The notes below the pieces were generated by a model, which worked only from the letters and a program-made list of their open reading frames with translations, was not told the origin of the DNA and did not search any database. From a virus: DNA of 64,000 nt. Positions 527 through 63,535 of the stretch are shown piece after piece. How positions within the stretch are numbered: the first letter of the stretch is position 1; every line of letters starts with the position of its first letter. The stretch lies in the IMG/VR virus record IMGVR_UViG_3300029904_000002, positions 1 to 64,000 of that record; one strand, written 5' to 3'. Position numbers and translations under genes: made by a program.

Positions 527-539
527 GCATCGTTAATAT
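527..539 (+). promoter_or_regulatory. gAATCGTTAt promoter-like motif copy (GCATCGTTAATAT)
   Basis: Intergenic, 12 nt after stop of 195..515, 30 nt upstream of small ORF ATG 569. Confidence 0.55.
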
Positions 540-568
540 GATTGTAGATAACATAGAAGGATATTCAC

Positions 569-688
569 ATGTCTCATTCACATAGAAAAATGCATGCATA
601 TGGAGAACGAGATCATGGAGGAAGCTACGTGTTAGATGATTATGAATTCTCTCATAATCATACAACTTCTGCAACTATTCGCAGATGA
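569..688 (+). CDS. small His-rich ORF, 39 aa (MSHSHRKMHAYGERDHGG...)
   Basis: Own translation; below the ORF-track cutoff; preceded by GAAGGA and a motif copy; could be non-coding. Confidence 0.3.
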   Translation: MSHSHRKMHAYGERDHGGSYVLDDYEFSHNHTTSATIRR

Positions 689-750
689 GAGAGAGGCATC
701 TTAAGAAGTATGACAGAAAAGCTTGTAAGAAACTTTGCAAATCAATTTTA

Positions 751-832
751 GCAGATATGGTGGAATGGTAGACACGGCAGACTCAAAATCTGCTGACCTT
801 GAGTCGTAAGAGTTCAAATCTCTTTATCTGCA
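751..832 (+). tRNA. tRNA-Leu (anticodon CAA), type II
   Basis: 82 nt: acceptor GCAGATA/TATCTGC, anticodon arm GCAGA-CTCAAAA-TCTGC, 14-nt variable arm, T-arm AAGAG-TTCAAAT-CTCTT. Confidence 0.85.
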
Positions 833-1020
833 TTACTTCAGCTTAGATGGTTTCTAAATCATGGGTTAGAATCTAAGTTTGAGTACGTAAACTCTGCACT
901 AGAGAACGATAAGTGGGTGCTCCGTTTAGAGTTGTTAGATCGAGTAAAGCAACAACCGTAAGTTTTCCTGTAGCTTACCTAACAAAAACTTGATGACACA
1001 TCGGAAAGACGATGGAGCTC

Positions 1021-1093
1021 GCTGGTGTAGCTCAATTGGCAGAGCAGCTGATTTGTAATCAGCAGGTTAAGAGTTCAAGTCTCTTCATCAGCC
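1021..1093 (+). tRNA. tRNA-Thr (anticodon TGT)
   Basis: 73 nt: acceptor GCTGGTG/CATCAGC, D-arm GCTC-AATTGGCA-GAGC, anticodon arm GCTGA-TTTGTAA-TCAGC, T-arm AAGAG-TTCAAGT-CTCTT. Confidence 0.85.
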
Positions 1094-1416
1094 AGTAGAG
1101 CTAATGGCCCACGTCTTTATAAGACGTCTTAAGGAAGCTTCTGCATTCGATGCAGGCTATGTCAAGAATGCAGCCGAAGGTGACACCGGATACAGTGGCA
1201 CAATCTGCGACATGTCAAGCAGTCACAATAACGGGTATAGCAGATGGCAGAAGGAAAGACTTCCGTAGTCTCGTGTGTAAGATTTCGTTATTGCTAGAGA
1301 TCTGAAGCGAATGGTAGGTTGCAGCCTGTTATAGCAGTAACAGGTGATTAATATGCAATACAAACTGATCACGTTAGAAATCAGGGTTATGGACTTGAGG
1401 CTTGTCCATAATGTAA

Positions 1417-2450: not shown

Positions 2451-2524
2451 TGCCTCATAGCTCAGAAGAGTAGAGCGCTTGACTGTTAATCAAGATGTCG
2501 CAGGTTCGAGTCCTGCTGAGGCAG
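2451..2524 (+). tRNA. tRNA-Asn (anticodon GTT)
   Basis: 74 nt: acceptor TGCCTCA/TGAGGCA, anticodon arm CTTGA-CTGTTAA-TCAAG, T-arm GCAGG-TTCGAGT-CCTGC; D-loop lacks the usual GG. Confidence 0.8.
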
Positions 2525-2792
2525 TTTGCTTGATAATCAGTTATCAAGCATAGGTACTTAGGTTTTGCCTATCTAAAGCTATAGTAGCCGAAGTGATTAG
2601 TAGGTGCAAAGATAGGTGTCTAATCGGGTTGAAATCTTGTTATTGTACCAAGATTCCGAAGACATAAAGGTACGTACAATATGATTAAGTTATCCTAGTT
2701 TGCTTAATCATTAAAAATAACTAGGTAGTTGCGGATCCTGTACTATCGCTAAATGCCGCTCAAGTTCAATACTAAAAGTTGAACATGATTTA

Positions 2793-2865
2793 GGCGGATT
2801 AGTCAAGTGGTCAAGACGACGCCCTTTCACGGCGTAAGCGCTCGGTTCGAGTCCGGCATCCGTCA
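2793..2865 (+). tRNA. tRNA-Glu (anticodon TTC)
   Basis: 73 nt: acceptor GGCGGAT/ATCCGTC (one G-U), anticodon arm ACGCC-CTTTCAC-GGCGT, T-loop TTCGAGT; one mismatch at the top of the T-stem. Confidence 0.7.
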
Positions 2866-3073
2866 TTTGCTCAAGTAACTGAGCAACTAATCAAATATAA
2901 CCATCTACGGTGTAGGCATATCAGTTACGTCCACGATATGCTGAGGTGTAAGAGGATGAATTGGGAAGATGGTCCGGAGGATGATTAGTTAAACGTTAGT
3001 CACACAATTGCTACTAGTGTGCACAGAGTCATTGAATGCAAACGATGGTAGCACATCGGCCATTGTCTCTGTA

Positions 3074-3142
3074 GGCAGTAGGTGTAAGGCGCACACGTAT
3101 ATCAAGGATATACGAGGGAAGGTTCAATTCCTTCTACTGTCA
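3074..3142 (+). tRNA. atypical 69-nt tRNA, anticodon unresolved
   Basis: Acceptor GGCAGTA/TACTGTC, 3-bp D-stem with loop AAGGCGC, T-arm GAAGG-TTCAATT-CCTTC. The anticodon hairpin GTATAT-CAAGG-ATATAC has only a 5-nt loop; forcing 7 nt gives TCAAGGA with C at position 33. Confidence 0.45.
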
Positions 3143-3364
3143 TCTGATTCTTGTCCGGTAGGTCCGAAGAATCAGGAAATGCGGATAACGTCAGATATGC
3201 AAGTGTCTGCAACGTAAACTTGAAGCATAAGTCTTGCAACTTATGTAGAGGCACGCTAAGTGGTGAGAGGTCAAAGGATCAGCTTATATGCGTAGCAAGT
3301 GATAGTATGCCTAAATCATTGAGTAAGCGACCTAGGAGCTGAAATATGATCAATACTATTGCGT

Positions 3365-3431
3365 ACATGTATAGTGTAGTGGTTAGCACACATAGAGATA
3401 TGTAGGAGTTGTTCGAATCGGCTTGCATGTA
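3365..3431 (+). ncRNA. tRNA-like element or tRNA pseudogene (anticodon loop reduced to a tetraloop)
   Basis: Acceptor ACATGTA/TGCATGT, canonical D-arm GTGT-AGTGGTTA-GCAC, T-arm AGTTG-TTCGAAT-CGGCT; anticodon position is ACATA-GAGA-TATGT; 67 nt. Confidence 0.45.
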
Positions 3432-3583
3432 TTGAGAATATCTATTCCAGATGAAGTCAAACTGGACATTATTGTATCATATGTGATGCATAAACGTGAT
3501 AAAATAGGGATCTAAGGGAGCTCCAACAAACAGCGGTCTATAATGTGATCGACCGTACAAAGTATAGATATTCTCATAATTAA

Positions 3584-3669
3584 GGGAGAGCGGTGATGAT
3601 GGCGGAATCACGGCAGACTGTAAATCTGTTACATTAGAAACGTTGCAGGTTCGACTCCTGCCTCTCTCA
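3584..3669 (+). tRNA. tRNA-Tyr (anticodon GTA), type II
   Basis: 86 nt: acceptor GGGAGAG/CTCTCTC, D-arm GTGA-(11 nt)-TCAC, anticodon arm GCAGA-CTGTAAA-TCTGT, 15-nt variable region, T-arm GCAGG-TTCGACT-CCTGC. Confidence 0.8.
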
Positions 3670-4033
3670 TTGAGGTAATCCTCACATGACGCATTGGGTA
3701 CAAAGTAATGCGTTGAAGGTCTAGACAAAATGTATAGAACATGTAATTATAACATGTTGCAAGGTTTGCAAAACTAGGCAAGTATGCATGTTAATTAAAT
3801 CTAATGGTAGAACCTTTGAAGTGTAAACATGTATTGAAACGTAATATATAAGTGAAAAATAGCTTAATTACGCGAATGTGAATATAGTACTTCATAAAAC
3901 ATAATTGAAATGTCTGATCAACATTCATGCATACGAATTTCAAATGAATAGGATGCATATCAAAACTGCATGGAGTGAAATTCATGTAGCTGTTCTCATA
4001 TAGAGGATATGCATCTGAAATTCTACAATAATT

Positions 4034-4107
4034 GGCTCTGTAGTTCAGTTGGTTAGAACGCTTGCCTGTCACGCAAGAGGTCGTCAGTTCGAATCTGATC
4101 AGAGTCG
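4034..4107 (+). tRNA. tRNA-Asp (anticodon GTC)
   Basis: 74 nt: acceptor GGCTCTG/CAGAGTC, D-arm GTTC-AGTTGGTTA-GAAC, anticodon arm CTTGC-CTGTCAC-GCAAG, T-arm GTCAG-TTCGAAT-CTGAT. Confidence 0.88.
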
Positions 4108-4109
4108 TT

Positions 4110-4195
4110 AGCTGTATAGTATAATGGTAGACGTCTAAAGATATCATTACACTCTATTGTTAAGAGAGATGCAAGTTCGATTCTTGCTGCAGCTG
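4110..4195 (+). ncRNA. tRNA-like element, 86 nt, non-canonical core
   Basis: Acceptor AGCTGTA/TGCAGCT and T-arm GCAAG-TTCGATT-CTTGC are canonical. The D region is weak, about 18 extra nt (4133-4150) follow, and the only anticodon-like hairpin is CTCT-ATTGTTA-AGAG. Confidence 0.4.
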
Positions 4196-4208
4196 GCTCA
4201 GAGATACG

Positions 4209-4275
4209 CCGGATGTTTTAGGGCGCTGGTGTAGGTCACCTTTAGGTGGAAGAGTTCGAATCTCTTAGGGTCCGG
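4209..4275 (+). ncRNA. tRNA-like element (T-arm plus closing helix only)
   Basis: T-arm AAGAG-TTCGAAT-CTCTT; closing helix CCGGAT/GTCCGG, extended by GATACG (4203-4208) / CGTATC (4284-4289); internal hairpin CACC-TTTA-GGTG; no cloverleaf found. Confidence 0.3.
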
Positions 4276-4309
4276 AACGCTAACGTATCTTGTGACAAAC
4301 CTATGACGA

Positions 4310-4384
4310 GGACCATTAGCTCAGTTGGTTAGCAGCATTTGTCTCATAAACAAAAGGTCCTGGGTTCGAGTCCCAGATGGTCCA
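4310..4384 (+). tRNA. tRNA with anticodon CAT (elongator Met or Ile2; not initiator-like)
   Basis: 75 nt: acceptor GGACCAT/ATGGTCC, anticodon arm TTTGT-CTCATAA-ACAAA (no GGG/CCC initiator signature), T-arm CTGGG-TTCGAGT-CCCAG. Confidence 0.8.
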
Positions 4385-4386
4385 TT

Positions 4387-4476
4387 GGGGTTACATAACT
4401 AGGATATGTTATGATCTACATGATTGAGCATGCTATACATCATGTAGATGATTCGGGTTTGATTCCCGAGCCCCTC
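4387..4476 (+). ncRNA. tRNA-like element with an 11-bp extended central hairpin
   Basis: GGGGTT/AGCCCC closing helix, T-arm-like CGGG-TTTGATT-CCCG, hairpin CATAAC-(8 nt incl. GG)-GTTATG, and an 11-bp stem ATCTACATGAT/ATCATGTAGAT with a 14-nt loop. Confidence 0.35.
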
Positions 4477-4515
4477 TCCGCTCGTTTTACATTTTGATAA
4501 GAAGGAGGAAACAAT

Positions 4516-4842
4516 GTGGAAACACGAAATGTGACGCAGTATCATGTTTATCTTCTAGTGCTAAACACATTCGGAAGAGCAGAAGAGGTGGGAATTGCTG
4601 CAGTTTCTACTGATTATGATCATCTTGTTAGCTGGTATCACGATCAGTTTGCAGAATCTAAATGGAGAGATGCTTCGGGATTCATCCATACTTTCAAGGA
4701 AGGCAGTCCTATAGAAAACTATAATCCTTGCTCGTCCATTGTTCTCAATCAATTAGGGTGTTTTGGAGACGGGATAAAAGATGAATGGGTTGATCAATCT
4801 TCATTTGAAACAATTCCAGGAAGATTTTATTTCTTAGGATAA
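4516..4842 (+). CDS. hypothetical protein
   Basis: ORF track 108 aa; GTG start 7 nt after GGAGG (4504-4508); the overlapping ATG 4514 frame stops after 6 codons. Confidence 0.5.
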   Translation: METRNVTQYHVYLLVLNTFGRAEEVGIAAVSTDYDHLVSWYHDQFAESKWRDASGFIHTFKEGSPIENYNPCSSIVLNQLGCFGDGIKDEWVDQSSFETIPGRFYFLG

Positions 4843-4866
4843 ATGGTATCACAGTATACCATCAAA

Positions 4867-4981
4867 AGGGGATTACGGTAATGGAATCCGCCAAATCTCG
4901 AGTTCTACTTTCTAGAAGATGAATGATGACAGAGGAGGGACTTGTATAACAAGTTTGATAGTTCGAATCTATCATCCCCTA
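4867..4981 (+). ncRNA. expanded tRNA-like gene, 115 nt
   Basis: Perfect acceptor AGGGGAT/ATCCCCT, D-arm CGG-TAATGGAAT-CCG, T-arm GATAG-TTCGAAT-CTATC. About 66 nt lie between the D- and T-arms, including hairpins TTCTA-CTTTC-TAGAA and ACTTG-TATAA-CAAGT. Confidence 0.5.
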
Positions 4982-5161
4982 TTAACTTAATTCATGGAGT
5001 ACAAGTGGTACCATTTGAAGGAGAGACTTGAAATCTCACACCCGTGGAGTTTACCCGAGGGAAATTTGAATTACAGTTACACGGAGTAAAGTAGCCATGC
5101 CCGTGTCAATACAACTGTACATTGTATTTGAGAAGCTTGCTAGCAGCACATGGTGAAGCCT

Positions 5162-5252
5162 GGAGGATTGTCCCAGTGGTATGAGGAACTGGAAACTGCA
5201 GTGATAAAAATTGTGACCAGAAAATGCGATAGTTCGAATCTATCATCCTCCA
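5162..5252 (+). ncRNA. expanded tRNA-like gene, 91 nt (paralogue of 4867..4981)
   Basis: Perfect acceptor GGAGGAT/ATCCTCC and a T-arm GATAG-TTCGAAT-CTATC identical to 4867..4981, D-arm TCC-(11 nt)-GGA; central CTGG/CCAG helix encloses 24 nt. Confidence 0.5.
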
Positions 5253-5408
5253 TTTAGAAAACCTAAAATACAAGGTCAACCCCATGTAGTCCTTTAGATG
5301 TACGTCAAAGTCTCTATAAAATAGAAGTGGGTCACAAGAACAGTTTAAGAAACTGCACAGTTATCGTAAGAATGGTCTGTTGCTAATTAAAACCTTGGTT
5401 TTCTATAA

Positions 5409-5497
5409 GCAGGATTACCCAAGTGGTTGAAGGGAGTGGTCTTGAAAACCACCAGGCGGATAGCATCCGTGCCAGAGTTCAAATCTCTGATCCTGCG
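5409..5497 (+). tRNA. tRNA-Ser (anticodon TGA), type II
   Basis: 89 nt: acceptor GCAGGAT/ATCCTGC, anticodon arm GTGGT-CTTGAAA-ACCAC, 20-nt variable arm with CGGAT/ATCCG stem, T-arm CAGAG-TTCAAAT-CTCTG. Confidence 0.85.
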
Positions 5498-5677
5498 TTT
5501 ACTTGTCAAGATCAACTATTCATACCTAGGCAATTTGAATAGAGAGTCTTAGGGAGACGATCTCCTACTTCGAGTGAAATAAAGAAGTGTGCAACATTAT
5601 GCGATATAGGTAGCTCTTATACGAATTGTGGAATATGATGCAGTCCACTGTATATTAGACGAAGACAAGTATTAAAT

Positions 5678-5831
5678 TTACATGTAGCTCAACGGTAGAG
5701 CATCCTGTATATCAGGAAGTGACGAATGATATATCAATAGACTGTTGATATGAATAAGTCAGATAAAATAATTGAATGATTTAGTCACAGGAAATTACTT
5801 CATAATCAAGGTTCAAATCCTTGCATGTAAA
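5678..5831 (+). ncRNA. interrupted tRNA-like gene, 154 nt
   Basis: Acceptor TTACATG/CATGTAA, canonical D-arm GCTC-AACGGTA-GAGC, T-arm CAAGG-TTCAAAT-CCTTG. TCCTG-TATAT-CAGGA hairpin is followed by a 70-nt insert closed by GTGAC (5719-5723) / GTCAC (5784-5788); CAGGA is repeated at 5713 and 5788. Confidence 0.5.
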
Positions 5832-6226
5832 TTAGAATACTAGAATAAAGGTCAAGGAAAGGTATCACCTGATAGACACCTAGACTACGTAGAAGGTAAA
5901 CCTGCATGTACGATCCAAAGTTCTATCTGATTCAGTATTCATCACAAAACCTGCCGTCAAGCCATTGCTTATTTTATCTACTATAGACGCACAAAAGTGC
6001 GATAGATGAATAGGCGAGGTGTAGTATATTAGGGTACAGTTCCGGCTTAAATTGACGTAAACCGTAAGCAGACGAGGACACAAAGTGAACAGTGCTATCT
6101 TCTCACAGTCGACACAGACCAACGGAGCTCGAATAAAGGTATCACTTAGTAGCGGAAACTCAAATCACTTACAAATGCTATTAAGTTCTGAGGGTCTTAA
6201 TAGAGAACTTCACACATTCCCGGTGA

Positions 6227-6277: not shown

Positions 6278-6290
6278 GCATCGTTATATG
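6278..6290 (+). promoter_or_regulatory. gAATCGTTAt promoter-like motif copy (GCATCGTTATATG)
   Basis: After the 6227-6269 hairpin; 51 nt upstream of ATG 6341. Confidence 0.6.
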
Positions 6291-6340: not shown

Positions 6341-7054
6341 ATGACAAACAATTCTGTTTCAATAAATATGGATTCTGCATATCTTTTCAAGAAGGGAAAG
6401 AATGGAAGATTTGTTTCTTATGATGATTATGGTAAGGTAATTATTGCAGAAAATTGCATTAAACCTGGATACTACATGATAAATAAAATTGTTAGAGATC
6501 TTAAGAAGTGTTGCATAGTCGAAGTATCTGAAGAAGTGTTAGTTGATTACTACGAAGGAATGAGATATGATCAGTTCAAGAATCTTCTTAAGATGAGAGG
6601 ATATGAGATTGCTTATGAACTTCCTTTCAACAATCCTCATTCTAGAAGTTTACCAGTAGTCGAATATCAGATGGTTGCATACAATTCTAGATTGAATATT
6701 GTTATCATTACAGAAACATTTTCGTTGTATGATGAATATACATTCAATACCATAGACTGCTACTGTTACGGAACAAGTGTATTTGATAATATGAAAGCAC
6801 AGTTCGTAAGTCGTGGAGGTTCAGAAGAATGTGTATTCAATATTGGTACATATCATAATGTTACCTGGATAAAGCCTCTTCAGTTTGTAGAAAGCAGAGC
6901 ATGTAAAGATGCCGAGAAGGGTACTTTTGATCTTCCTAGTTGTTTTACATATGCAGATGATGATGTATGCAAACATCTTGATGAGTATAGGGATAGATTC
7001 TTAAGTTTGATTCCTGATGAACTCAGAATTTGGTTTAGATCTTATAAGGGGTAG
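6341..7054 (+). CDS. hypothetical protein
   Basis: ORF track 237 aa; no motif recognised. Confidence 0.7.
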   Translation: MTNNSVSINMDSAYLFKKGKNGRFVSYDDYGKVIIAENCIKPGYYMINKIVRDLKKCCIVEVSEEVLVDYYEGMRYDQFKNLLKMRGYEIAYELPFNNPHSRSLPVVEYQMVAYNSRLNIVIITETFSLYDEYTFNTIDCYCYGTSVFDNMKAQFVSRGGSEECVFNIGTYHNVTWIKPLQFVESRACKDAEKGTFDLPSCFTYADDDVCKHLDEYRDRFLSLIPDELRIWFRSYKG

Positions 7055-8899: not shown

Positions 8900-8912
8900 G
8901 AATCGTTATATA
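8900..8912 (+). promoter_or_regulatory. gAATCGTTAt promoter-like motif copy (GAATCGTTATATA)
   Basis: Immediately after the hairpin; 26 nt upstream of ATG 8938. Confidence 0.6.
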
Positions 8913-14877: not shown

Positions 14878-14908
14878 ACATAAGATAAATAGATAGGAGG
14901 CACACATT

Positions 14909-15772: not shown

Positions 15773-15774
15773 TT

Positions 15775-22941: not shown

Positions 22942-22942
22942 A

Positions 22943-52682: not shown

Positions 52683-55286
52683 TTGAGATTATTTAGCTCT
52701 GCTCAAGCAGATAAAATCAATCGAGTAGCTGAACGAACGAAAGATTCTATTCAAGCGCCTAAAAAAGTAAGTGCTAAGAACATTTCAAGCGAATTGGAAC
52801 GAATATCTAAGCAGGTGCTTGAATACTTCAAAGATTCTGATGCTATCTTGATTGAGAGTAGAGAACAGCTTCACGATTATGTGACAAAATTGATTGAATC
52901 TGGATATGCAGGTATAGATACTGAGACGACTGGTCTTGATCGTATTCATGATACTATTGTAGGATCCTCACTTTACTATCCTGGAGGAGTTGAATGTTAC
53001 ATACCTAATAAGCATCTTGTCCCGATATTCGATCAGCCCTATAAGGGTCAGCTTACATATGAAGATGTACAAGAAGAGTTTCAACGTATTGCAGATTCAA
53101 GTGTGAAGCTGATCTTCGCGAATGCTGATTTCGACTTGGCTATGATCTTCAAAGATTATAAGGTGGATCTTGTCAAAAGGTGTTATTATGATGTTATTAT
53201 CGGGTGGCGTGTGATTCGAGAAGGTGAACAGCATTATGATTTGAAAGGATTATATAATCGGCATGTATTGAAAGGAAAGGGAGATCCTAAGAAATTTAGT
53301 GATTTTTTCTCTCCTCAGCTTTTTCCATATTGTAAGCCTCACATAGCAAAGTTATATGCTGCACACGATGCTAAAATAACATTTGAGGAGTTCAAATTTC
53401 AACTTCCGTTTGTTACAAAATCTAATGAAAAGTGTATATCAAATCATCTTGAGCGTATAGCTGATCTTGTCTGGGAAGTTGAAATGCCTATGATTGGAGT
53501 ATGCCAGCAGCTACATCGTAATGGTATATACTTAGATAAAGATATTGCAAAAGCACTTCAGGATAAGTATCATTCCGAACGGGATAAAGAATTGAAAATA
53601 CTGCAAGATATGGTTCAACAGATAATTGATGAAAGAGGATACACAGTTCCGTCGTCGATCAAAAAACCATTTTTGTCTGGTTCCGACTTCAATCCTACGT
53701 CTCCTCTTCATGTTAAGTATCTTCTTTATACACTGATGGGGATACCTTCCGATGGTAAGAAAGAGGGAACTGGTAAAGATGTTCTAAATGAACTTAATCT
53801 TCCTGTCACTAATCAGATTTTGAAAGTAAGATCTTATGGAGTATTGATCAATACATTTGTAGACAAGATGCCTAAAATAACAGCTACAGATGGTAGAGTG
53901 CATGCTACATTTAGGCAGGTCGGTGCAGATACGGGTCGCATGTCATCTGCAGATCCAAACTTGCAGAATATTCCGTCTCATGCAACAGATATACGTCATA
54001 TGTTTAAAGCATCTCCTGGATACGTTATGATGTCTAGCGACTATAGTCAGCAGGAACCAAAGTTGACAGCATTTGTAAGTCAGGACAAGAAAATGTTTGA
54101 AGCATTTACGCATGGTAGAGATATATATGCTACTATTGCGTCTATCGGATTCAATGTACCTTATGAGAACTGTCTTGAGTTTCATCCAGAGACTCATGAG
54201 TATCAGCCCGATGGTAAAGCTCGTCGAGGAGAAGCTAAGACTGTGCTTCTGGGAGTACTTTATGGTAGATCTATACCATCTATTGCAGAGCAGTTGTATG
54301 GTAAACGAACAGATATGTCAGATAAAGAAAAAGTAACTGCTGCACAGAAAGTCTATGATTCAATCATGAATGGATTTCCATCACTTAGAAACGCAATGCT
54401 GTCCGCACAGGATCACGCAAGAAAGTTTGGATATACAGAAACTATTTTAGGACGACGACGTCATCTTCCAGATATGCAATTACCTGAATTTGAATTCAAA
54501 CCGATGCCTGGATATGTCAATCCTGATATAGATCCACTTGATCCTTCTACATTGAATCAGAAGGAAGAGATTCCAAAAAGAATAACAGATGCTCTTTTAA
54601 AAGAGTTCAAAGGTTACAAATATTTTGGCCAGATAGTGAAACGTACAAAACAACTTGCTGAAGAACACATTCGTGTTATCAACAACCGTGCAAAGATAAA
54701 CGATGCTACTCGGCAGTGTCTAAACGGCGTTATCCAAGGCTCAGCTGCTGACATGACGAAGTTAGCATTACTTAACATATATGAGAGCGATGACTGGGAA
54801 CGACTTGGTGGTCGTCTACTGATTCCGATTCATGATGAAATTCTTTGTGAATTTCCTAAGGAAAATTATGAAGAAGGTGCAAAGCTTCTTAGCAAGCTGA
54901 TGTCATCTGCAGGTAGTTTTCTTCCTTTTCCTATCAATTGTGATGTAGAAGTTACAACAAATTGGTATGGCCTTGAATATCCTTGCCCATATAAGCAGCC
55001 GGAATCACTCGATACAGTAGATCCTGATGAGATCAAATGGATTCAGTACATGCTATTTGAATGCGAGTATTCTCTGCCTAAACATAAAGAAATGTTTGGT
55101 GAAGAATTCCGAGGTGACATTGCAAAAGGTGTAGACGGTGTATACTCAGATGAGATAAAATCCATGATTGATGATTACAAATCTAAGTGGAGAATTGAAT
55201 CGGACAAGGATTTCATAAACATGATCAAAACACATGTTATCGATGGAGTTACACCTTATGATCAGATGCACCGTGAATCGTTATAA
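52683..55286 (+). CDS. polA: family-A DNA polymerase with 3'-5' exonuclease domain
   Basis: 867 aa; Exo I GIDTETTGLD; motif A SSDYSQQEPK; motif B RRGEAKTVLLGVLYG; motif C PIHDEIL. Confidence 0.95.
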   Translation: MRLFSSAQADKINRVAERTKDSIQAPKKVSAKNISSELERISKQVLEYFKDSDAILIESREQLHDYVTKLIESGYAGIDTETTGLDRIHDTIVGSSLYYPGGVECYIPNKHLVPIFDQPYKGQLTYEDVQEEFQRIADSSVKLIFANADFDLAMIFKDYKVDLVKRCYYDVIIGWRVIREGEQHYDLKGLYNRHVLKGKGDPKKFSDFFSPQLFPYCKPHIAKLYAAHDAKITFEEFKFQLPFVTKSNEKCISNHLERIADLVWEVEMPMIGVCQQLHRNGIYLDKDIAKALQDKYHSERDKELKILQDMVQQIIDERGYTVPSSIKKPFLSGSDFNPTSPLHVKYLLYTLMGIPSDGKKEGTGKDVLNELNLPVTNQILKVRSYGVLINTFVDKMPKITATDGRVHATFRQVGADTGRMSSADPNLQNIPSHATDIRHMFKASPGYVMMSSDYSQQEPKLTAFVSQDKKMFEAFTHGRDIYATIASIGFNVPYENCLEFHPETHEYQPDGKARRGEAKTVLLGVLYGRSIPSIAEQLYGKRTDMSDKEKVTAAQKVYDSIMNGFPSLRNAMLSAQDHARKFGYTETILGRRRHLPDMQLPEFEFKPMPGYVNPDIDPLDPSTLNQKEEIPKRITDALLKEFKGYKYFGQIVKRTKQLAEEHIRVINNRAKINDATRQCLNGVIQGSAADMTKLALLNIYESDDWERLGGRLLIPIHDEILCEFPKENYEEGAKLLSKLMSSAGSFLPFPINCDVEVTTNWYGLEYPCPYKQPESLDTVDPDEIKWIQYMLFECEYSLPKHKEMFGEEFRGDIAKGVDGVYSDEIKSMIDDYKSKWRIESDKDFINMIKTHVIDGVTPYDQMHRESL

Positions 55287-55327: not shown

Positions 55328-56431
55328 ATGGAATTTAAGACAAACACACAGCCGTTATCAGATGCACTGAATCTTGGAATTGTAAATGCTAATGTATCTA
55401 AATTTTATCAGCCTAGCTGCTTAGCACATCTTACAGCTAAGAGAAACAAGTTGATTATCAATTTAGAGGCTGAGAGGTTACTTACTCAGATTACAGTGTC
55501 TGGCATGGGTTCCGAAAACGGCGAAGCTTCTATCTTTGTAGATAACTTGAAGCTTAAACAGCTTGTGAATAGCTTTGATACAAATACTATAGATATGATG
55601 TTTGAAGAGGATGGTCTTACATTAAAATCTGGTAAAGCTAAATTCACGTTATCTAAGATGGTAGAGGAGGAAGTAGCAATTCAGAAGCCTGCTATGCCAT
55701 TTGAAGATGATCCTCAGATTGAAGTATCTAAAGATGATTGGAAATTCATCAGCGATAAACAGATGTATGCTATCGCAATGAATTACATACATCCTGTATA
55801 TACAAGAGCTTGGATGGGCGACAAAGGTGATGTCATTGTAGGTGATTATGATAGCAGCTTGTTTACACATTCTACTAAGAATACATTAGGCATCACATGT
55901 CTTTTGAAAGATACTATTGTTAATTTACTTAACAGCCTTCCAGAAGGATCTAAACTTTACAAACACGGTAGATCATATATCGTAATTGTTAATACAGAGG
56001 GTTACGAGATGGTGACAGAGTTTACACCGGAATATGAAGATGAAGAAGGTTCTATTGGAAACTACAACTCTGATATCATATTAGGCATCTTTACTAAACC
56101 TGAGGAGCATATCACATTCAATCCTTCTGTCATAAATAAGTTTCTTGCTCAAGCTGATATCTTAGCAGAAGGGTCTGATGATATCATTGATGTATCGTTT
56201 GGGCATGATAAGCTTTCATTTAATGGAGATCGGGTAGATTATAGTGTAGATGTCACCGGATCCTGTATGCCATTTGAATTAAAATTCAAGTCAAAAGCTT
56301 TGAAGAGTGTACTGTCTCGATATGATGGAGAAAAGATGAACCTTGCACCGCTTAGCAATGGAGATGAGATTGCAGGTATTACAGTTTGGTCTGATGAGCT
56401 TGTAACGTCAATCGCAGGAGTTGAAGAATAA
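55328..56431 (+). CDS. dnaN: beta sliding clamp-like protein
   Basis: 367 aa (beta-clamp length); N-terminal pattern MEFKTNTQPLSDALNLGIV..; context next to polymerase and clamp-loader genes; not verified by search. Confidence 0.6.
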   Translation: MEFKTNTQPLSDALNLGIVNANVSKFYQPSCLAHLTAKRNKLIINLEAERLLTQITVSGMGSENGEASIFVDNLKLKQLVNSFDTNTIDMMFEEDGLTLKSGKAKFTLSKMVEEEVAIQKPAMPFEDDPQIEVSKDDWKFISDKQMYAIAMNYIHPVYTRAWMGDKGDVIVGDYDSSLFTHSTKNTLGITCLLKDTIVNLLNSLPEGSKLYKHGRSYIVIVNTEGYEMVTEFTPEYEDEEGSIGNYNSDIILGIFTKPEEHITFNPSVINKFLAQADILAEGSDDIIDVSFGHDKLSFNGDRVDYSVDVTGSCMPFELKFKSKALKSVLSRYDGEKMNLAPLSNGDEIAGITVWSDELVTSIAGVEE

Positions 56432-57233: not shown

Positions 57234-57536
57234 TTGTTCACAATAGAATTTCCATATGACATAGGAACATTTGTTCAAGTCAATAATAGTATGAGAGGTG
57301 AATCTCCAAAGCCTAAAGAATGCTGGGATGACTTAGGAGATATCGGCATTATTGAGTTCTATAATTGTGTAGATAATTCACAGACTGATGACAAGTTTGT
57401 AGTTGTTGTGTCCGGCTATGAGCAATCATGGTGCGGAGAGTATCTACTTCGTGAGATACGATTGCTAACGGATGATGAAATTGCAATCGTTAAAAATGAT
57501 AATATCATCAGAGATGAGGAGGTAGAAGATGCCTAA
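57234..57536 (+). CDS. hypothetical protein
   Basis: ORF track 100 aa, TTG start. Confidence 0.5.
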   Translation: MFTIEFPYDIGTFVQVNNSMRGESPKPKECWDDLGDIGIIEFYNCVDNSQTDDKFVVVVSGYEQSWCGEYLLREIRLLTDDEIAIVKNDNIIRDEEVEDA

Positions 57537-58554
57537 TTTAGCAGCAAAGTATAGGCCACGAACTTGGGATGAAGTTGTTGAGCAAAAGATGGTCATTCAT
57601 ATGGTTAAAGGATTGATTGATAACGAATGTATGGATGTTCGCAACTTCTTGTTTACAGGCCCTGCGGGGTGCGCAAAGACGACGATTTGTAGGATACTTG
57701 CAAATGTTCTCAATGAAGGTAAAGGGGAACCTATTGAAATTGATGCAGCTTCTAACAGCGGTGTAGATAATATGCGAGTGATCATTGATCAAGCACGCTC
57801 ATATCCTGTGGGCACAAAATGGAAAATTTTCATCATAGATGAAGTTCATTCCTTTTCTAATGCAGCGTGGCAAGCAGCTTTGAAGACATTTGAAGAAGTC
57901 CCTGCACGTACAATATTTTTGATGGCTACAACAAACCCTGAAAAGATTCCACCTACTATATTATCACGTGTTCAGCAATTTCGATTATCAAAGATATCGG
58001 TAGAGGGAATTGAGAATCGGCTTAAGTATATAGTTGAGCAGGAGAATAGCGAGGGTCAGAATATTACATACACCCAAGATGCAATTAGTTATATTGCTAA
58101 GATGGCAAATGGTGGTATGCGTGATGCAATTACATTATTGGAGAAGGCAATAGCAAGTGATTCAAACATTACATCACAATCTTTGATGACGTCTTTAGGT
58201 CTGCCTAACTATGATCAGTTTTTTGAACTTCTTCAAGCTTATGCATCAAAGGACAATGCTGGTATTGCAAAGATTATAGATGAGGTATATAATTCAGGTG
58301 TGAATTTTGCAAAATGGATGACTGATTTCCATGCATTTACAATCAATGTAGTGAAATATATACTTTTGAAAGACATATCCAAAACTATGATACCTGGACA
58401 TTATGAGGATAAGATCAAGCCGTATGGCAATGCACATCTTATGATTTGTTTAAAACTTGCATCTAAACTTGTCAAGTTGAACAATGAGTTACGATTCAGT
58501 CAATATCAACAAGAGCTTACTCTCACATATCTCTGTTCCGTAGTTAAGAAATGA
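57529..58554 (+). CDS. dnaX: clamp-loader AAA+ ATPase (DnaX tau/gamma-like)
   Basis: 341 aa; Walker A GPAGCAKTT; Walker B IIDEVH; sensor SRVQQF. Confidence 0.82.
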   Translation: MPNLAAKYRPRTWDEVVEQKMVIHMVKGLIDNECMDVRNFLFTGPAGCAKTTICRILANVLNEGKGEPIEIDAASNSGVDNMRVIIDQARSYPVGTKWKIFIIDEVHSFSNAAWQAALKTFEEVPARTIFLMATTNPEKIPPTILSRVQQFRLSKISVEGIENRLKYIVEQENSEGQNITYTQDAISYIAKMANGGMRDAITLLEKAIASDSNITSQSLMTSLGLPNYDQFFELLQAYASKDNAGIAKIIDEVYNSGVNFAKWMTDFHAFTINVVKYILLKDISKTMIPGHYEDKIKPYGNAHLMICLKLASKLVKLNNELRFSQYQQELTLTYLCSVVKK

Positions 58555-58596: not shown

Positions 58597-58609
58597 GCAT
58601 CGTTATATA
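58597..58609 (+). promoter_or_regulatory. gAATCGTTAt promoter-like motif copy (GCATCGTTATATA)
   Basis: After the hairpin; 23 nt upstream of ATG 58632. Confidence 0.6.
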
Positions 58610-58631: not shown

Positions 58632-59207
58632 ATGAATTTCGACTTAATTGAACAAAAGTATCAGAAGGATATTGATGCTGTCATCGATTATGAGAATGAT
58701 ATTTACAATCATCTGTTTGCAGATGAATTTTCCGAGATTTTGAAACTGTCTGACGCAATTAAGCAATCGGGGTATCGATCACCTTCAGACGAAGTACTGG
58801 AACTCATCTTAATAGATGTGCCATTAAAACTTTTTGATGTGGCTGAGAGACTTAATCAGCTTGAGCTAACACTTCAGGTACTTAAGTTAGAGCTCAAAGA
58901 AAAGAAGATACAGCTTAAGCATTGCGACCATGTTCAAAATCTAAATTCTACAGAGACATCCGATTATATCACGTCAAAAACTATTGAGGATGAGCTTATG
59001 ATCTGCGTGTACACTAAGTTGATTGAAAGGGTGAATTCGCAAGTTTCATATTCTAAAGAGCTTATAATGAGCGCTAAAAAGCTATGGGATCGCAGAAAAG
59101 AAGCTGAATCTGTTATGCCGGTATCACCGGTTGATCCTACCTCTGTTCCGTATAATCCTACAGAGAGCAGAAAGCGACCTGTTTATGGGTCAACTGATGC
59201 GGTATGA
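58632..59207 (+). CDS. hypothetical coiled-coil protein
   Basis: ORF track 58626..59207; ATG 58632 lies 7 nt after GGAGG. Confidence 0.6.
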   Translation: MNFDLIEQKYQKDIDAVIDYENDIYNHLFADEFSEILKLSDAIKQSGYRSPSDEVLELILIDVPLKLFDVAERLNQLELTLQVLKLELKEKKIQLKHCDHVQNLNSTETSDYITSKTIEDELMICVYTKLIERVNSQVSYSKELIMSAKKLWDRRKEAESVMPVSPVDPTSVPYNPTESRKRPVYGSTDAV

Positions 59208-59769: not shown

Positions 59770-59780
59770 ATCGTTATAAT
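59768..59780 (+). promoter_or_regulatory. gAATCGTTAt promoter-like motif copy (AGATCGTTATAAT)
   Basis: Overlaps the stop codon; 20 nt upstream of TTG 59800. Confidence 0.55.
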
Positions 59781-59799: not shown

Positions 59800-60939
59800 T
59801 TGGCAACATTCGAAGATATTATTAAACGAAAACAAAAAGACTGGGGAGAGTCTATCATGGATATACATTCTAGAGATTCAAAGATTCCATTGAGTTCTCC
59901 TCAGTTTGTATGGTCGTTGTATGGTGGAATACCAAGAAATAAGATGACAGAGTTTTTTGGATGTCCAGGTGGAGGAAAGAGTACAAGTGCAATTGATGCT
60001 TGTAAAAATGCTGTCCAGCTGTTTAAACAGGAATTTGATGCACAGGTAGATAATTTGAGATTAGCTGCATCTAAGGGCAATAAACAAGCATCGATTGAAC
60101 TTGAGGATCTTGTAGATAGAGGTCCTAATAAAGTGTTCTACCTAGATTTAGAGCATTCATTTGATGAAGAATGGTCAAAAGTGTTAGGTATCAATTCTGA
60201 TGAAATATATATCATGCAACCACCGGATGCTCCAGCAGAAGAGATACTTCAGATGATTCAAGAGATGGTAGAAACAGGAGAAGTTGGATTACTTGTAATT
60301 GATTCTATTCCATCTTTAGTTCCTCAGGCAGAACTTGATAAGAAATATGGAGAACGTACCGTAGCTTCATTAGCAGGATTATTGACAGTTTTCTGCAGGA
60401 AAATGACACCTCTGCTAACTCGATATGAGTGTACTATGCTTGTCATTAATCAGATTCGTGACAACATGGATAATCCATATGTAGTTAAGACTCCTGGAGG
60501 GGAAGCACTTAAATTCTATTGCTCACTAAGAGTAGAATTTCGTCAAGGTAACCCAGTTGATTTCTTAGGCAATGAGCTTCCAATGAGTACAGAAGATCCT
60601 GCGGGATACATTATCAAGACGAAGATTCATAAACAGAAGAGTGCACCTAATAACCGTAAATCAGCGTCGTATTATTTGATGTGTACAAAGGGTATAATGC
60701 CTATGTTTGATTATGCACAGCTGGCCATAAAACGATATGGTATCATTTCTAAATCAGGTGGATGGTTTACACTTACCGATCCAGACACAGGTGAAATTTT
60801 GCAGCAGGATGGTAAAACAGTTAAGATTAATGGGCTTGCACGTGTATATCAGTACCTTGAGAATAATCCTGATTATTATGAAAAAATCCAAAAATACATT
60901 ATGAATGATCTCAATAATTCGGATCCGGAGGTGGTGTAA
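59800..60939 (+). CDS. recA: RecA-family recombinase
   Basis: 379 aa, TTG start 7 nt after GGAGG; Walker A GCPGGGKST; Walker B LLVIDSI. Confidence 0.88.
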   Translation: MATFEDIIKRKQKDWGESIMDIHSRDSKIPLSSPQFVWSLYGGIPRNKMTEFFGCPGGGKSTSAIDACKNAVQLFKQEFDAQVDNLRLAASKGNKQASIELEDLVDRGPNKVFYLDLEHSFDEEWSKVLGINSDEIYIMQPPDAPAEEILQMIQEMVETGEVGLLVIDSIPSLVPQAELDKKYGERTVASLAGLLTVFCRKMTPLLTRYECTMLVINQIRDNMDNPYVVKTPGGEALKFYCSLRVEFRQGNPVDFLGNELPMSTEDPAGYIIKTKIHKQKSAPNNRKSASYYLMCTKGIMPMFDYAQLAIKRYGIISKSGGWFTLTDPDTGEILQQDGKTVKINGLARVYQYLENNPDYYEKIQKYIMNDLNNSDPEVV

Positions 60940-61481
60940 TGTCTACAAAGACTTATTCTAATAAACAAGAGAAGATAATTTCAGAAGCGCTTGGATGGCA
61001 GACAGTTTCAGCGAGTGGCGCAAGAAATTTTAGCCCCGGAGATGTCAAATCTCCGAATTGGCTCGGAGAATGTAAAACTCATACTTCTGAAGTATCATCC
61101 ATTGTATTCAGAGAAGATGTTTGGATGAAGATTGAAGCAGAGGCAGATTCTGAGCATAAGGATCCTGTTTATTTTGTAGATAATGGTACTCAGACAATTA
61201 CAGGTACTTGGGCTATGTTTGATTACAAAAGATGTTCAGGTAGCTTTGAATATTTTGTGATCGACAAGACGAACTGTTCTGATTTATCTCGATTGATTAG
61301 AGGAAGCGTAAACATCATATTTGATAATATTGATCTACTTTATGAATATCGAAAGATCAAAAGAATGAATTTAGCTGCAGGTCTAGATGTTTGCACCGTT
61401 ATATCAGTTCCGCTGAAATCCAACAAAGATATTGTCATCTGTCCTCTAACAGAATTTATAGATATGTTTGGGAGCAAATAA
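60939..61481 (+). CDS. putative PD-(D/E)XK nuclease / Holliday-junction resolvase
   Basis: 180 aa; SASGARNFSPGDVKSPNWLGECKTH resembles the SG...D-(x)n-ExK nuclease core; follows recA. Confidence 0.4.
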   Translation: MSTKTYSNKQEKIISEALGWQTVSASGARNFSPGDVKSPNWLGECKTHTSEVSSIVFREDVWMKIEAEADSEHKDPVYFVDNGTQTITGTWAMFDYKRCSGSFEYFVIDKTNCSDLSRLIRGSVNIIFDNIDLLYEYRKIKRMNLAAGLDVCTVISVPLKSNKDIVICPLTEFIDMFGSK

Positions 61482-61483
61482 GT

Positions 61484-62404
61484 ATGAGAAGTATTCAAGA
61501 TGTAGGTATGGAGATCTTTAAAAGATCTCCTAAAAAGTTTTATGTATTTTGTGGATCTGAATATGGTATCAAATTGAAATATTTAGAAAATCTGAAAGAT
61601 TTTTATGATGGACATTATGAATCATATGATTCAGTTCAAGATGTATTAGATTTGATGAAAGTTAAGCGTATAATTCCTCTTGTTCCGTCGTTGTACGTTG
61701 TAAGGTATGATGATTCATTCATATCAAGTTTATCTGATAAATCTGCATCAAAGATTGAATCTTGTAACATCGTAGGTACCATTGTATGCTTATATGAAAA
61801 TCCTAAGTATTTATCTAAATTAGATAAATACTTAGGAAATTATACCGTATCTATAGATATGGTATCGCCACAGTTTGTCAAGAAATATCTGCATACTGAT
61901 TTCGCAGGAGTAGCTGATAAGGTAGTAGATATTGCTGTAGAGTGTGGAGCTAATTATTACCAGAGTAAGATGATCTGTGCAGCTTTGAAATCATTAGATG
62001 CATCAGAAATCTTGAATTCAGATATCACTTCAATATACAAATTGTTTGGGCATGAATGTAAATCAACAGAAGCGATGCTTAAAGAATGCATAGCTTCGAG
62101 AAATTTTAAGCATTGTATGAAAGTCCTCGGAGAATACGACAACTACGATACTATATATTACACAATTTTACAAACATTGATTGATATCGATAAATGCATG
62201 TCAAGCAAATATGCACAGTCTGATATCCAGAAATACGTGAAAAAGTGGAAACCGGAAGATGTCTATAATATGTTTGATATCACATATTCGGAACTTAAGC
62301 GATCAAGATCAATGTCTACCGATATTAAAATGAGTATAATCTATTTGATGAGTATACTTGTATTTAGCCCAATTCCGAGAAAGGAGCAGCTATATGATAT
62401 TTGA
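61484..62404 (+). CDS. clamp-loader delta (HolA)-like subunit
   Basis: ORF track 61391..62404; ATG 61484; N-term KKFYVFCGSEYGIKLKYL resembles the HolA start; context. Confidence 0.5.
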   Translation: MRSIQDVGMEIFKRSPKKFYVFCGSEYGIKLKYLENLKDFYDGHYESYDSVQDVLDLMKVKRIIPLVPSLYVVRYDDSFISSLSDKSASKIESCNIVGTIVCLYENPKYLSKLDKYLGNYTVSIDMVSPQFVKKYLHTDFAGVADKVVDIAVECGANYYQSKMICAALKSLDASEILNSDITSIYKLFGHECKSTEAMLKECIASRNFKHCMKVLGEYDNYDTIYYTILQTLIDIDKCMSSKYAQSDIQKYVKKWKPEDVYNMFDITYSELKRSRSMSTDIKMSIIYLMSILVFSPIPRKEQLYDI

Positions 62405-63167
62405 AAATCAAAAATCTGCTATGGATCAGCTTAAACAACTTGGACAATCTGATAGACACAGTGTCATGATTGAAGGACTTGAAGGATGTGGAAAAACTAC
62501 ATTGGCACAAACTTACAAACATCTTGTAGCGTGTTCTGATTTTACACTTGTTGAGCCAAATGTCCAAGCTTTAAGGAATGCAATAGATAGTTGTTATAAC
62601 CTATCTACAAAATCATTGATATGCATTGAAAACTTAGATTCAGGTGTAGCTGCAGCATCTTATACAATACTGAAATTTCTAGAGGAGCCAGCTGAAAACA
62701 TCTATATTGTTGTGACTTGCAGAAATAGATACAGAATTCCAGATACAATAATTAGTAGAAGCACCGTGGTGACAATAGATCCTCCAACTACCCAATCAAT
62801 AATAGAATATGTCGATTATAAATATCCTGATGAAGGTATTAAGTCTCATAGCTTGTTTCGATGTATAAAAACATTTTCTGATGTAGATAGAGTAGCTCAA
62901 ATGAATAAAGATCAGATAGACTATTTTCAAACGTTTTCTCATCTTGATTTCAGTGAGTCCGTGTCTAATATGGCATGGAAACTGATGCATTACCCTGATA
63001 ACACAGATTTGTATATACCATTTGTAATACGGTACATCATGAATCTGACGCATAATACACATGTACATAGATGTGGAGTAGAATGCTTAGATGATTTATC
63101 TACAGGAAGAATTGCTGCACATGCAGTTGTTAGCAAATTTTGTATGGATCTAAAGTATACGGAGTAG
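62394..63167 (+). CDS. clamp-loader delta-prime (HolB)-like AAA+ subunit
   Basis: ORF track 62358..63167; ATG 62394; GLEGCGKTT P-loop, SRSTVV sensor. Confidence 0.65.
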   Translation: MIFENQKSAMDQLKQLGQSDRHSVMIEGLEGCGKTTLAQTYKHLVACSDFTLVEPNVQALRNAIDSCYNLSTKSLICIENLDSGVAAASYTILKFLEEPAENIYIVVTCRNRYRIPDTIISRSTVVTIDPPTTQSIIEYVDYKYPDEGIKSHSLFRCIKTFSDVDRVAQMNKDQIDYFQTFSHLDFSESVSNMAWKLMHYPDNTDLYIPFVIRYIMNLTHNTHVHRCGVECLDDLSTGRIAAHAVVSKFCMDLKYTE

Positions 63168-63175
63168 TGATAAGT

Positions 63176-63532
63176 ATGGTTGGAGATATTTTCTTATTTA
63201 TTGTGTCAGGTATTTGCATATTGATGAACATTGCACTAGTTGGATCTATCATCAAAGTATCTGCTGCATATCAATCTATGCTTACTAAATATAATGATCT
63301 TGCAAATAAGTATAGTATTGCAGATCGTACTATAAGATCGTTGAAAGATGCATTGAAGCACAGCGAGTTCAAAAATTCATTTATACAATCGTTAAACATT
63401 GATTCTGTAGATGATACTGTATTAGACGCACTTAAAATTGCGATGAAACAATCTCATCCGGACAATGGAGGGTCCTCAGAAGACTTCATAAGATTTCGTG
63501 AAGCACTTAACAAGTACTCATCAAATCGTTAA
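63176..63532 (+). CDS. membrane-anchored J-domain-like (DjlA-like) protein
   Basis: ORF track 63140..63532; ATG 63176; N-terminal TM IFLFIVSGICILMNIALVGSII; C-term LKIAMKQSHPDNGGSSEDFIRFREALNKY with an HPD tripeptide. Confidence 0.55.
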   Translation: MVGDIFLFIVSGICILMNIALVGSIIKVSAAYQSMLTKYNDLANKYSIADRTIRSLKDALKHSEFKNSFIQSLNIDSVDDTVLDALKIAMKQSHPDNGGSSEDFIRFREALNKYSSNR

Positions 63533-63535
63533 TAT
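63523..63535 (+). promoter_or_regulatory. gAATCGTTAt promoter-like motif copy (AAATCGTTAATAT)
   Basis: Overlaps the stop codon; 33 nt upstream of ATG 63568. Confidence 0.55.

Follow-up and report, generated by a model that had tools for sequence, protein, structure and literature searches.

The ATCGTTA box of an uncultured gut phage: a putative single-element promoter class and its candidate phage-encoded sigma-like readers

ATCGTTA boxes in the window and the genes behind them

A stretch of 64,000 nucleotides (nt) from an uncultured virus (IMG/VR record IMGVR_UViG_3300029904_000002, positions 1-64,000; hereafter 'the window') was analysed for a short repeated element with the core ATCGTTA ('the box'), which the original prediction had placed at about 24 operon starts and regarded as a possible phage-specific promoter class. 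The window has a guanine plus cytosine (GC) content of 36% and is coding nearly entirely on the + strand, with strong ribosome sites (AGGAGG), a non-coding share of 15.5% and just two minus-strand genes (32258-32602 and 41238-41978). It encodes 12 transfer RNAs (tRNAs), an NAD-ligase, ThyX, a FolE/QueD/QueE/QueC/QueF-like cluster, a DUF932 protein, DnaB, primase, a family-A DNA polymerase (PolA), a clamp loader, RecA and, amid tail-fibre-like genes, a GH25+CW_7+LysM lysin. Proteins identical to those of the window were carried by metagenomic contigs of 160-165 kb, and 12 kb of the window found no match among GenBank phages by megablast; the best PolA matches among isolates (Dp-1, phiCTP1 and Flasso) each reached ~34% identity. 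Judged from its sequence, the window is part of an uncultured gut phage of ~160 kb with a Gram-positive, Firmicutes-type host, and ~84 kb of this genome were examined. Compared contigs and loci are denoted by L-numbers (L001, L008, L023 and so on), L030 being Clostridium phage phiCTP1.

In total, 33 matches to ATCGTTA were counted on both strands (27 on + and 6 on -) against 8.27 +/- 2.86 expected from dinucleotide shuffles, and none of the 100 shuffles reached 33. Non-coding DNA of the + strand held 19 copies where 1.0 was expected (Poisson P ~4e-18), and ATCGTTA was the most frequent 7-mer of non-coding DNA, outranking the Shine-Dalgarno heptamers. The intergenic enrichment anticipated in the original prediction was thereby borne out by a formal count, and its estimates of GC (~35%) and of about one chance copy in non-coding DNA proved accurate. 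The motif coordinates it gave were correct to within 2 nt; its 21 + strand copies rose to 23 in promoter-like context, next to two ATCGTCA variants (142 and 1953) and one - strand copy (32699-32705), and to the in-coding copies it had listed (11510 and 63388) two more were added (47364 and 48278). A weight matrix built from 48 non-redundant sites gave 25 matches of at least 12 bits on the + strand and 2 on the - strand, relative to 0.7 per strand in shuffles. Altogether, ATCGTTA precedes ~25 gene blocks, and the genes served (tRNAs, ligase, ThyX, the que cluster, DnaB, primase, PolA, clamp loader and RecA) fit the early or middle class that had been proposed. Every site was co-oriented with its downstream gene, as originally described. 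The reported absence from the structural region also held: the matrix scan found no sites of at least 9 bits in 14868-27443 or 27445-32698, and the tail-fibre, lysis and structural blocks were free of matches.

In the left part of the window (+ strand coordinates unless stated otherwise), boxes lay before a small open reading frame (ORF) and tRNA-Leu 751 (529-535; 19.2 bits), before coding sequence 1537-1944 (1499-1505, adjoining a tRNA-Leu 3' end; 21.7 bits) and before the tRNA cluster 2451-5497 (2205-2211; 24.7 bits, conserved in L015 and L019). The ATCGTCA variant at 1953-1959 (17.6 bits), which preceded tRNA-Leu 2093, has an ATCGTTA orthologue in L016; the variant at 142-148, which scores below 9 in the matrix and lacks an A/T-rich block downstream, is a doubtful member. 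Further boxes were found behind a 19-pair hairpin before coding sequence 6341-7054 (6280-6286; conserved in L015, L016 and L019), behind a terminator before the operon that includes NAD-ligase (9240-11234) and ThyX (12377-13411) (8902-8908), and behind terminator 13426-13452 (13470-13476), where a perfect gaATCGTTAtaat of 25.3 bits precedes coding sequence 13527-14561 and the gene of a SpoIIID-like helix-turn-helix (HTH) protein. Directly 3' of the stop codon of the latter gene, box 14867-14873 (conserved in L011) precedes coding sequence 14909-15772. The next box (27444-27450; 13.1 bits) follows terminator 27399-27430 and precedes coding sequence 27540-27842.

The only minus-strand box in promoter context (32699-32705; 16.9 bits) points towards coding sequence 32602-32258 and forms a divergent, back-to-back pair with the + strand box 32712-32718 (19.6 bits), which precedes coding sequence 32758-33264. 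Box 34132-34138 (11.5 bits) precedes the 7-deazaguanine (que) operon 34168-37934, box 37940-37946 (20.2 bits) precedes coding sequence 37999-38811, and box 40155-40161, behind terminator 40115-40142, precedes the DUF932 gene 40209-41189. A 1.28 kb intergenic region holds box 42705-42711 (16.3 bits) upstream of two sigmaA-type promoters, an arrangement that recurs in L023; at the left edge of this large region, just upstream of the divergently transcribed gene 41238-41978, lies a one-mismatch copy, ATCGTTC (42019-42025). Box 44417-44423, within the last 50 nt of coding sequence 43255-44466, precedes a 617-aa gene, DnaB and primase, and box 49345-49351 (25.2 bits) precedes coding sequence 49379-49936. 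Box 50048-50054 stands in the spacer of a sigmaA-type promoter (50032-50060) before gene 50135-50752, and box 51763-51769 before coding sequence 51821-52585. In the replication region, boxes precede PolA (52683-55286; box 52641-52647, behind an 18-pair hairpin), a beta-clamp-like gene (55328-56431; box 55277-55283, overlapping the PolA stop), the clamp-loader gene (57529-58554; box 57486-57492, the weakest at 10.4 bits), coding sequence 58632-59207 (box 58599-58605, behind a hairpin) and a RecA-like gene (59800-60939; box 59770-59776, with the Shine-Dalgarno sequence at the minimum distance of 17 nt). The last box (63525-63531) lies at the end of coding sequence 63176-63532 and precedes the next gene.

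Some further features accompany these sites. Rfam detected only tRNAs in the window; the tRNA region (2525-6084) contains long non-coding spacers (718, 587 and 363 nt) free of Rfam matches, and the ARAGORN tRNAs Tyr 3584, Val 5161 and Ser 5409 did not reach the Rfam gathering score. A 14-pair terminator-like hairpin (37949-37979) between box 37940 and its expected gene suggests attenuation of the unit 37999-38811. A complete 7-deazaguanine set is encoded at 33375-37934 (Vut_1 transporter, short-chain dehydrogenase, QueF-like protein, QueC, QueD, QueE and FolE); this gene content makes a modified guanine in the phage DNA probable, and such a base could influence the reading of promoters, including the G of the ATCGTTA box.

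Anatomy and conservation of the box

From 50 non-redundant site clusters (window plus close relatives), the consensus was t-G-a-ATCGTTA-T-a-a-t-a-T-R-T, followed by a purine-rich (G/A)TAGA, with nearly all information residing in tGaATCGTTAT. No -35 element was seen in these clusters, no column from -25 to -11 exceeding 0.15 bit, which agrees with the original description, as does the finding that only the 50048 copy lies within a TTGACT-17-TACAAT promoter. Positions T+12, R+13 and T+14 were semi-conserved in a single register. The TGTGTAG block described after the motif was indeed present, but its spacing, given as a variable 1-8 nt, was mostly of one register, ATCGTTA-N8-(G/A)TAGA.

The first base of the Shine-Dalgarno sequence was located at least 17 nt from the start of the box (17, 17, 20, 20, 21 four times, and so on), and the distances piled up at 17-33 nt. 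This limit puts the predicted transcription start 7-12 nt beyond the box, at about +13 to +18 counted from the first A. It also rules out a role as -35 element, which had been considered by analogy with the late CGTTAGA of phage SPO1, because a Shine-Dalgarno sequence can begin as close as 17 nt away. On these distances, the geometry of the box is that of a -10-region element. The 20-90 nt between box and start codon given originally did not apply to 42705 (550 nt) or to the sites directed at tRNAs.

Compared with known elements, the box resembled a -10 hexamer in its invariant TA; the T at the -7 equivalent occurred in 26 of 50 sites (52%), and a register 2 nt downstream fitted equally poorly. 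The TG of an extended -10 at -15/-14 was not matched, the equivalent positions being an invariant CG, and neither was a sigmaA -35 (TTGACA 16-18 bp upstream), TTGACT being found only at 50048. For extracytoplasmic function (ECF) sigma factors, the CGT was present and the AAC-containing -35 was absent. A single element (one box of ~8 bp with no second element) was the pattern that matched. Strong hairpins lay ahead of the box at only ~9 of 26 sites (6280, 8902, 13470, 27444, 40155, 52641, 58599 and two weaker ones), so that the proposed typical position 5-15 nt after a stem-loop was not upheld; as only about one-third of the sites follow a hairpin, the box is not part of a terminator. Most operons behind strong terminators had no other candidate promoter.

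In close relatives (PolA 95% identical), the box was kept at every orthologous position of 44-64 kb, even where the flanks could not be aligned (57486 and 63525 relative to L001). At the counterpart of 57486 in L001 the box was present at a shifted position, which indicates site turnover. In 16 flank-anchored pairwise alignments of orthologous sites, 1 of 112 box positions was mismatched relative to 134 of 1,120 flanking positions (P = 4e-5), a difference from which purifying selection on the box itself is deduced. More distant phages likewise carried sense-strand boxes in this context: 117-125 kb contigs (PolA 60%), a 188 kb contig (41.6% GC), a 121 kb contig and four further lineages. Across relatives with GC of 31-44%, 57 sense copies contrasted with an expectation of 17.5, and 6 antisense copies with one of 20.4; every related lineage examined carried the box. 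PhiCTP1, the nearest sequenced isolate checked, which has a syntenic replication module, had no sense-strand ATCGTTA in 50 kb.

Two side observations concern these relatives. PhiCTP1 has repeated intergenic words of its own, CTTTAAT-N-(T)GATATAAT and CTTGTATATTATATAATAATGTTATATAATAATA. In L024:12083-16163 and L026:6082-9920 the family-A DNA polymerase gene is in two pieces with ORFs inserted (DUF7487; a 249-aa ORF), likely a result of mobile-element insertion.

Sigma-like proteins and sigmaA-type promoters

The phage encodes its own sigma factor: one 194-aa protein is recognisable by Pfam, and two proteins of the window appear sigma-like by fold and profile. Of the three products originally proposed as factors acting on the motif, these two (50135-50752, and 41238-41993 on the - strand) came out as probably sigma-like in structure and profile comparisons; the third is the 87-aa SpoIIID-like HTH protein (14603-14866, +), a possible accessory regulator. 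No single-subunit RNA polymerase appeared in the Pfam lists for the ~84 kb examined, and for the early proteins of 403 and 617 aa, searches of Pfam, PHROGs, NCBIfam and PDB sequences returned no match.

The best candidate for a reader of the box, by fold, profile, promoter and co-occurrence, is p205 (50135-50752, +), a divergent sigma-like protein of 205 aa with no match in Pfam, PHROGs or NCBIfam. Its AlphaFold model (predicted local distance difference test, pLDDT, 89) matched mostly sigma factors in Foldseek searches of PDB and BFVD, weakly (E 0.2-4). Comparison of the deep p205 family profile with the 194-aa sigma family paired a near-invariant YIYRVAYNCLYCISHDR segment and the following linker with regions 2.3-2.4 and 3.2-4.1 of the latter (hhalign E 1.3e-4, probability 54%), and the top PDB sequence match of p205 was sigmaF, in the same region and register as the profile alignment (E 0.85). 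Pfam Sigma70_r2 was matched by 2 of 41 distant p205 relatives (E 0.005, below threshold). Single-sequence hhalign of p205 and of the second protein, p246m, against the sigma family was uninformative, the signal appearing for p205 only with the deeper alignment. Among 1.8 billion representatives, the p205 family formed 245 clusters at the 50% identity level, and it had no members in 50,697 GenBank phage records; a scan with a shallower family alignment hit two contigs of metagenome-assembled genomes with conflicting bin labels (Muribaculaceae versus Clostridia). A homologue was present in 12 of the 12 motif-bearing lineages examined, down to 24-30% identity, including a 7.7 kb contig of different gene content (L025) and a 1.08 kb contig with boxes flanking the gene. 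In three divergent lineages the p205 gene was preceded by a consensus sigmaA-type promoter (TTGACT-17-TACAAT, TTGACT-17-TATAAT and TTGACA-17-TATAAT), so p205 would be an early gene, as expected for a factor that switches on the next class. In phiCTP1, the gp43 'response regulator', with a C-terminus like sigma region 4 or LuxR, is located after primase, the place of p205 here.

The second protein, p246m (41238-41978, -; 246 aa), is likewise divergent and sigma-like by fold; it is syntenic, co-occurs with the motif and could be an alternative reader or a late sigma. Its start was taken as the ATG at 41978, 41993 being the TTG start of the longest ORF. It had no Pfam match; with its model (pLDDT 79), ~30 of 44 Foldseek matches were sigma factors over the full length, the top PDB match being a sigmaH model (probability 0.98, E 0.05), and hhalign placed residues 30-77 in register with sigma region 2.1-2.2 (E 0.09). 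The p246m family has more than 670 members in contigs of 90-190 kb; the gene was syntenic in L023, L024, L028 and L029 and co-occurred with the motif wherever the region was covered.

The conventional 194-aa sigma (L008:5603-6187) is encoded ~4.4 kb upstream of the window, behind a UvrD-type helicase, in a box-headed operon. It matched Sigma70_r2 (1.5e-11) and, below the Pfam cut-off, r4 (3.7e-4), and was most like SigK, SigE and SigH, its best PDB sequence match being a sigmaH. In a word-filtered search, its homologues had at least 66% identity in ~160 kb contigs, followed by 39% in a bacterial contig. Used alone against viral contigs it found nothing; with its alignment, only two close relatives were recovered, and a UvrD helicase anchor recovered the same two. 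In phiCTP1, homologues of p205 and p246m were absent, and gp61 is a distant sigma of the 194-aa type. Among bacteria, the nearest relatives of the 194-aa sigma itself are four tandem paralogues on contig L018. Upstream of its operon, a protein of more than 1,150 aa is intact in one relative (L008:1-3458 and L019:2522-7864 were compared); in the other, a GIY-YIG/NUMOD3 homing-endonuclease gene interrupts the coding sequence, leaving two genes of 786 and 653 aa.

Near-consensus sigmaA-type promoters were present at 42876-42904 (TTGACT-17-TATAAT with TG, 11/12) and 42970-42997 (TTGACA-16-TATCAT, 11/12), both on the + strand and presumed early, in addition to TTGACT-17-TACAAT at 50032-50060 (+), which contains box 50048, and a further near-consensus TTGACA/TATAAT-type promoter just upstream of the window. 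The presence of such promoters in the same genome indicates that the primary sigma of the host is ordinary and that the box is a separate class.

Other non-coding signals were noted as well. Between the two sigmaA-type promoters and the first gene (43255), the segment 43005-43254 holds a near-perfect hairpin of ~150 nt ending in a T-run, with a minimum free energy of -100.8 kcal/mol relative to -55.6 in shuffles (z = -10.9) and no Rfam match; it could act in an early leader as attenuator or terminator, or be an inverted repeat of the origin type. Another word, ATATCAA (variants ACATCAA and ATATCGA), had 12 + strand non-coding copies relative to ~1.9 expected, mostly 23-38 nt before start codons (6303, 13504, 50107, 50780, 51788 and 55300 in the window). 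In every lineage the leader ahead of p205 holds two to four copies of this word, as in the p205-homologue leaders of L023, L024, L026 and L027. The word could be an operator or RNA site of a regulator acting on leaders. As a possible second, late promoter motif, TTCATACA behind terminator 17445-17466 seemed SigE/K-like, but CATACA and TATGTAT had no intergenic pattern.

Interpretation of the box and comparison with known systems

The box is probably a core promoter. A phage-specific promoter class, as originally suggested, is supported by the intergenic and sense-strand enrichment, the position at operon starts, the 17-nt limit, the fixed downstream block, selection on the box and its distribution over lineages. 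ATCGTTA would be the core of a single-box promoter with no -35, the box standing in the -10/extended -10 region and transcription being predicted to start 7-12 nt past its last base (+13 to +18 from the first A). A phage-encoded sigma-like protein would direct host core RNA polymerase to the box, the best candidate being p205; we put the probability of a p205-read promoter at roughly 0.55. The promoter role, the start position and the reader protein are what we infer from the observed motif, its statistics, geometry, conservation and co-occurrence. In this scheme p205 would be made early, from its consensus host sigmaA-type promoter, and the box would then drive an early/middle programme of tRNAs, nucleotide metabolism, 7-deazaguanine synthesis and replication genes, as well as the operon of the conventional 194-aa sigma, which may in turn serve late genes. 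A more far-reaching version is tentative and has somewhat less than even odds: p205 would represent a previously unrecognised, highly divergent sigma family with the box as its cognate promoter, widespread in large uncultured gut Firmicutes phages and part of a three-sigma cascade. Host sigmaA would drive p205 and p246m, these the ATCGTTA genes including the conventional sigma, and the latter the late genes; p205 would read the seven invariant bases in the -10/extended -10 region with no -35 contact.

Several points weigh against p205 as reader. For p205 and p246m, the signals of sigma-likeness are weak and sub-threshold, though convergent (Foldseek E of at least 0.05, hhalign probability 54%, window proteins with no Pfam match). 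Both proteins co-occurred wherever both could be checked, so that co-occurrence cannot separate them, and this co-occurrence partly reflects shared ancestry, since all motif-bearing loci belong to related phages. The 194-aa sigma stands in an ATCGTTA-headed operon, which is compatible with its being the reader, and its apparent restriction to a ~160 kb subclade comes from a word-filtered search, not from whole genomes. A phage RNA polymerase or further sigmas may be encoded beyond the ~84 kb seen of ~160 kb. Finally, p205 appears to retain a region-4-like C-terminal domain, yet a -35 element is not seen.

It is rather unlikely that the box is a promoter read by p246m or by the 194-aa sigma, with p205 serving another gene class or role. 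The structural signal of p246m (sigmaH model, probability 0.98, E 0.05) is stronger than that of p205, and its register with sigma region 2.1-2.2 and its synteny in four loci point the same way; the 194-aa sigma has true Sigma70_r2/r4 matches and resembles SigK, SigE and SigH. ComX, a member of the SigH family, uses a -10-only box, which fits such a reader. PhiEco32 offers a parallel in gp36, whose gene is part of the regulon that it serves (PMC8948821). The 194-aa sigma, however, seems narrowly distributed (at least 66% identity, ~160 kb contigs), whereas the box is used far outside that subclade, and phiCTP1 has a distant 194-aa-type sigma yet is free of the box. For p246m, the gene was not seen in the 7.7 kb contig L025, which bears p205 and the box, a contig too short to decide.

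A host-only explanation, in which the box is an unusual extended -10 read by sigmaA, alone or with a cofactor (ATCGT at -17 to -13, TAtaat as the -10 hexamer), is distinctly unlikely; in a variant of it, recognition of the -35 might be switched off by a small protein of the phage, as happens in Thermus phage P23-45. The invariant TA with the A/T-rich bases behind it resembles the start of a -10 hexamer, the G at the -14 equivalent fits the TG extension, box 50048 lies inside a full sigmaA-type promoter, and a sigma gene within a box-headed operon would be simplest if the host can start the programme. Against this, seven contiguous invariant bases, with C in place of the extended -10 T, go far beyond known reading by sigmaA region 3.0, the T at the -7 equivalent is present in little more than half of the sites, and at 50048 the TAtaat reading is offset by 2 nt from the hexamer that has the right -35 spacing. 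The low-GC Firmicutes phage phiCTP1 lacks the box, which is conserved across phages with GC of 31-44%, probably of different hosts. SpoIIID-type proteins bind asymmetric sites as monomers, and with a SpoIIID-like protein encoded in the window (14603-14866) the box might instead be an asymmetric site of such a phage regulator, or an RNA-level signal such as a processing or leader site, given that read-through puts the box into RNA, that about one-third of the sites follow hairpins and that the leader word ATATCAA speaks for leader-level signals in these phages. That the box is not a core promoter at all is nevertheless very unlikely: neither an operator nor a processing site predicts the hard 17-nt Shine-Dalgarno minimum, the fixed-register pyrimidine-purine start-like block with its A/T-rich melting region, or the antisense depletion of the box in relatives, and most strong-terminator operons have no other candidate promoter, while two-thirds of the sites have no hairpin.

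The closest analogue of the box as a p205-read promoter is the set of gp36-dependent promoters of phiEco32, followed by those of T4 gp55. Promoters of the middle and late class in phiEco32 consist of a single element, tAATGTAtA, with the start 6-8 bp downstream, and gp36, which has no homology to region 4, is a middle-gene product that serves middle and late promoters and is encoded inside its own regulon (PMC8948821). Common to both systems are one highly conserved box of 8-9 bp with no -35, a start a few bp downstream (predicted here), host core polymerase with a divergent phage sigma as presumed reader here, and sigma70-type promoters for the earliest genes. They differ in sequence, host phylum and phage lineage; gp36 has no detectable homology to p205 or p246m, p205 appears to keep the region-4-like domain that gp36 lacks by homology, and the box stands before replication and tRNA genes but not in the structural blocks.

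Late promoters of T4 have TATAAATA as their -10 element, read by gp55 together with gp33 and the sliding clamp. They share with the box the -10-only layout and, as presumed here, a very divergent phage sigma barely recognised by sequence searches, but the T4 box is late, A/T only and replication-coupled, whereas the present one has a central CG and precedes early/middle functions. ComX/SigH-type promoters have the 'cin-box' TACGAATA, and ECF-type -10 elements contain CGT, ECF promoters needing an AAC -35. The single -10-region box, the central CG and, as presumed here, a small alternative sigma are common ground; these are, however, host competence and stress regulons, and the ECF AAC -35 is absent at the box. 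Bacillus phage SPO1 has a cascade in which gp28 acts on middle genes and gp33/gp34 on late genes, with a late -35 of CGTTAGA. As a Firmicutes phage in which several phage sigmas succeed host sigmaA, and with CGTTA inside its late -35, SPO1 is similar, but its promoters are bipartite (-35 and -10), whereas the Shine-Dalgarno distance excludes the box as a -35. Its sigma cascade has been summarised (PMC13401047). In tblastn of the 194-aa sigma against GenBank phage records, SPO1 was not among the best 25 of 30 matches.

The principle of phage sigmas with single-box promoters is already known from T4 and phiEco32. No description of this box, the phage clade or the two candidate sigma families was found in the literature and databases searched, a literature search for ATCGTTA with promoter and phage returning only primer noise. 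If the interpretation is true, the transcription logic of a large clade of uncultured gut phages of 90-190 kb would have been read from sequence alone, and a promoter word marking early/middle operons would be available for the annotation of transcription units. The two unannotated families of proteins would then count as new sigma factors of extreme divergence. The defined box and protein would form a pair testable in vitro with any Firmicutes core polymerase, despite the uncultured host, and such a compact, orthogonal sigma/promoter pair could serve as a genetic part.

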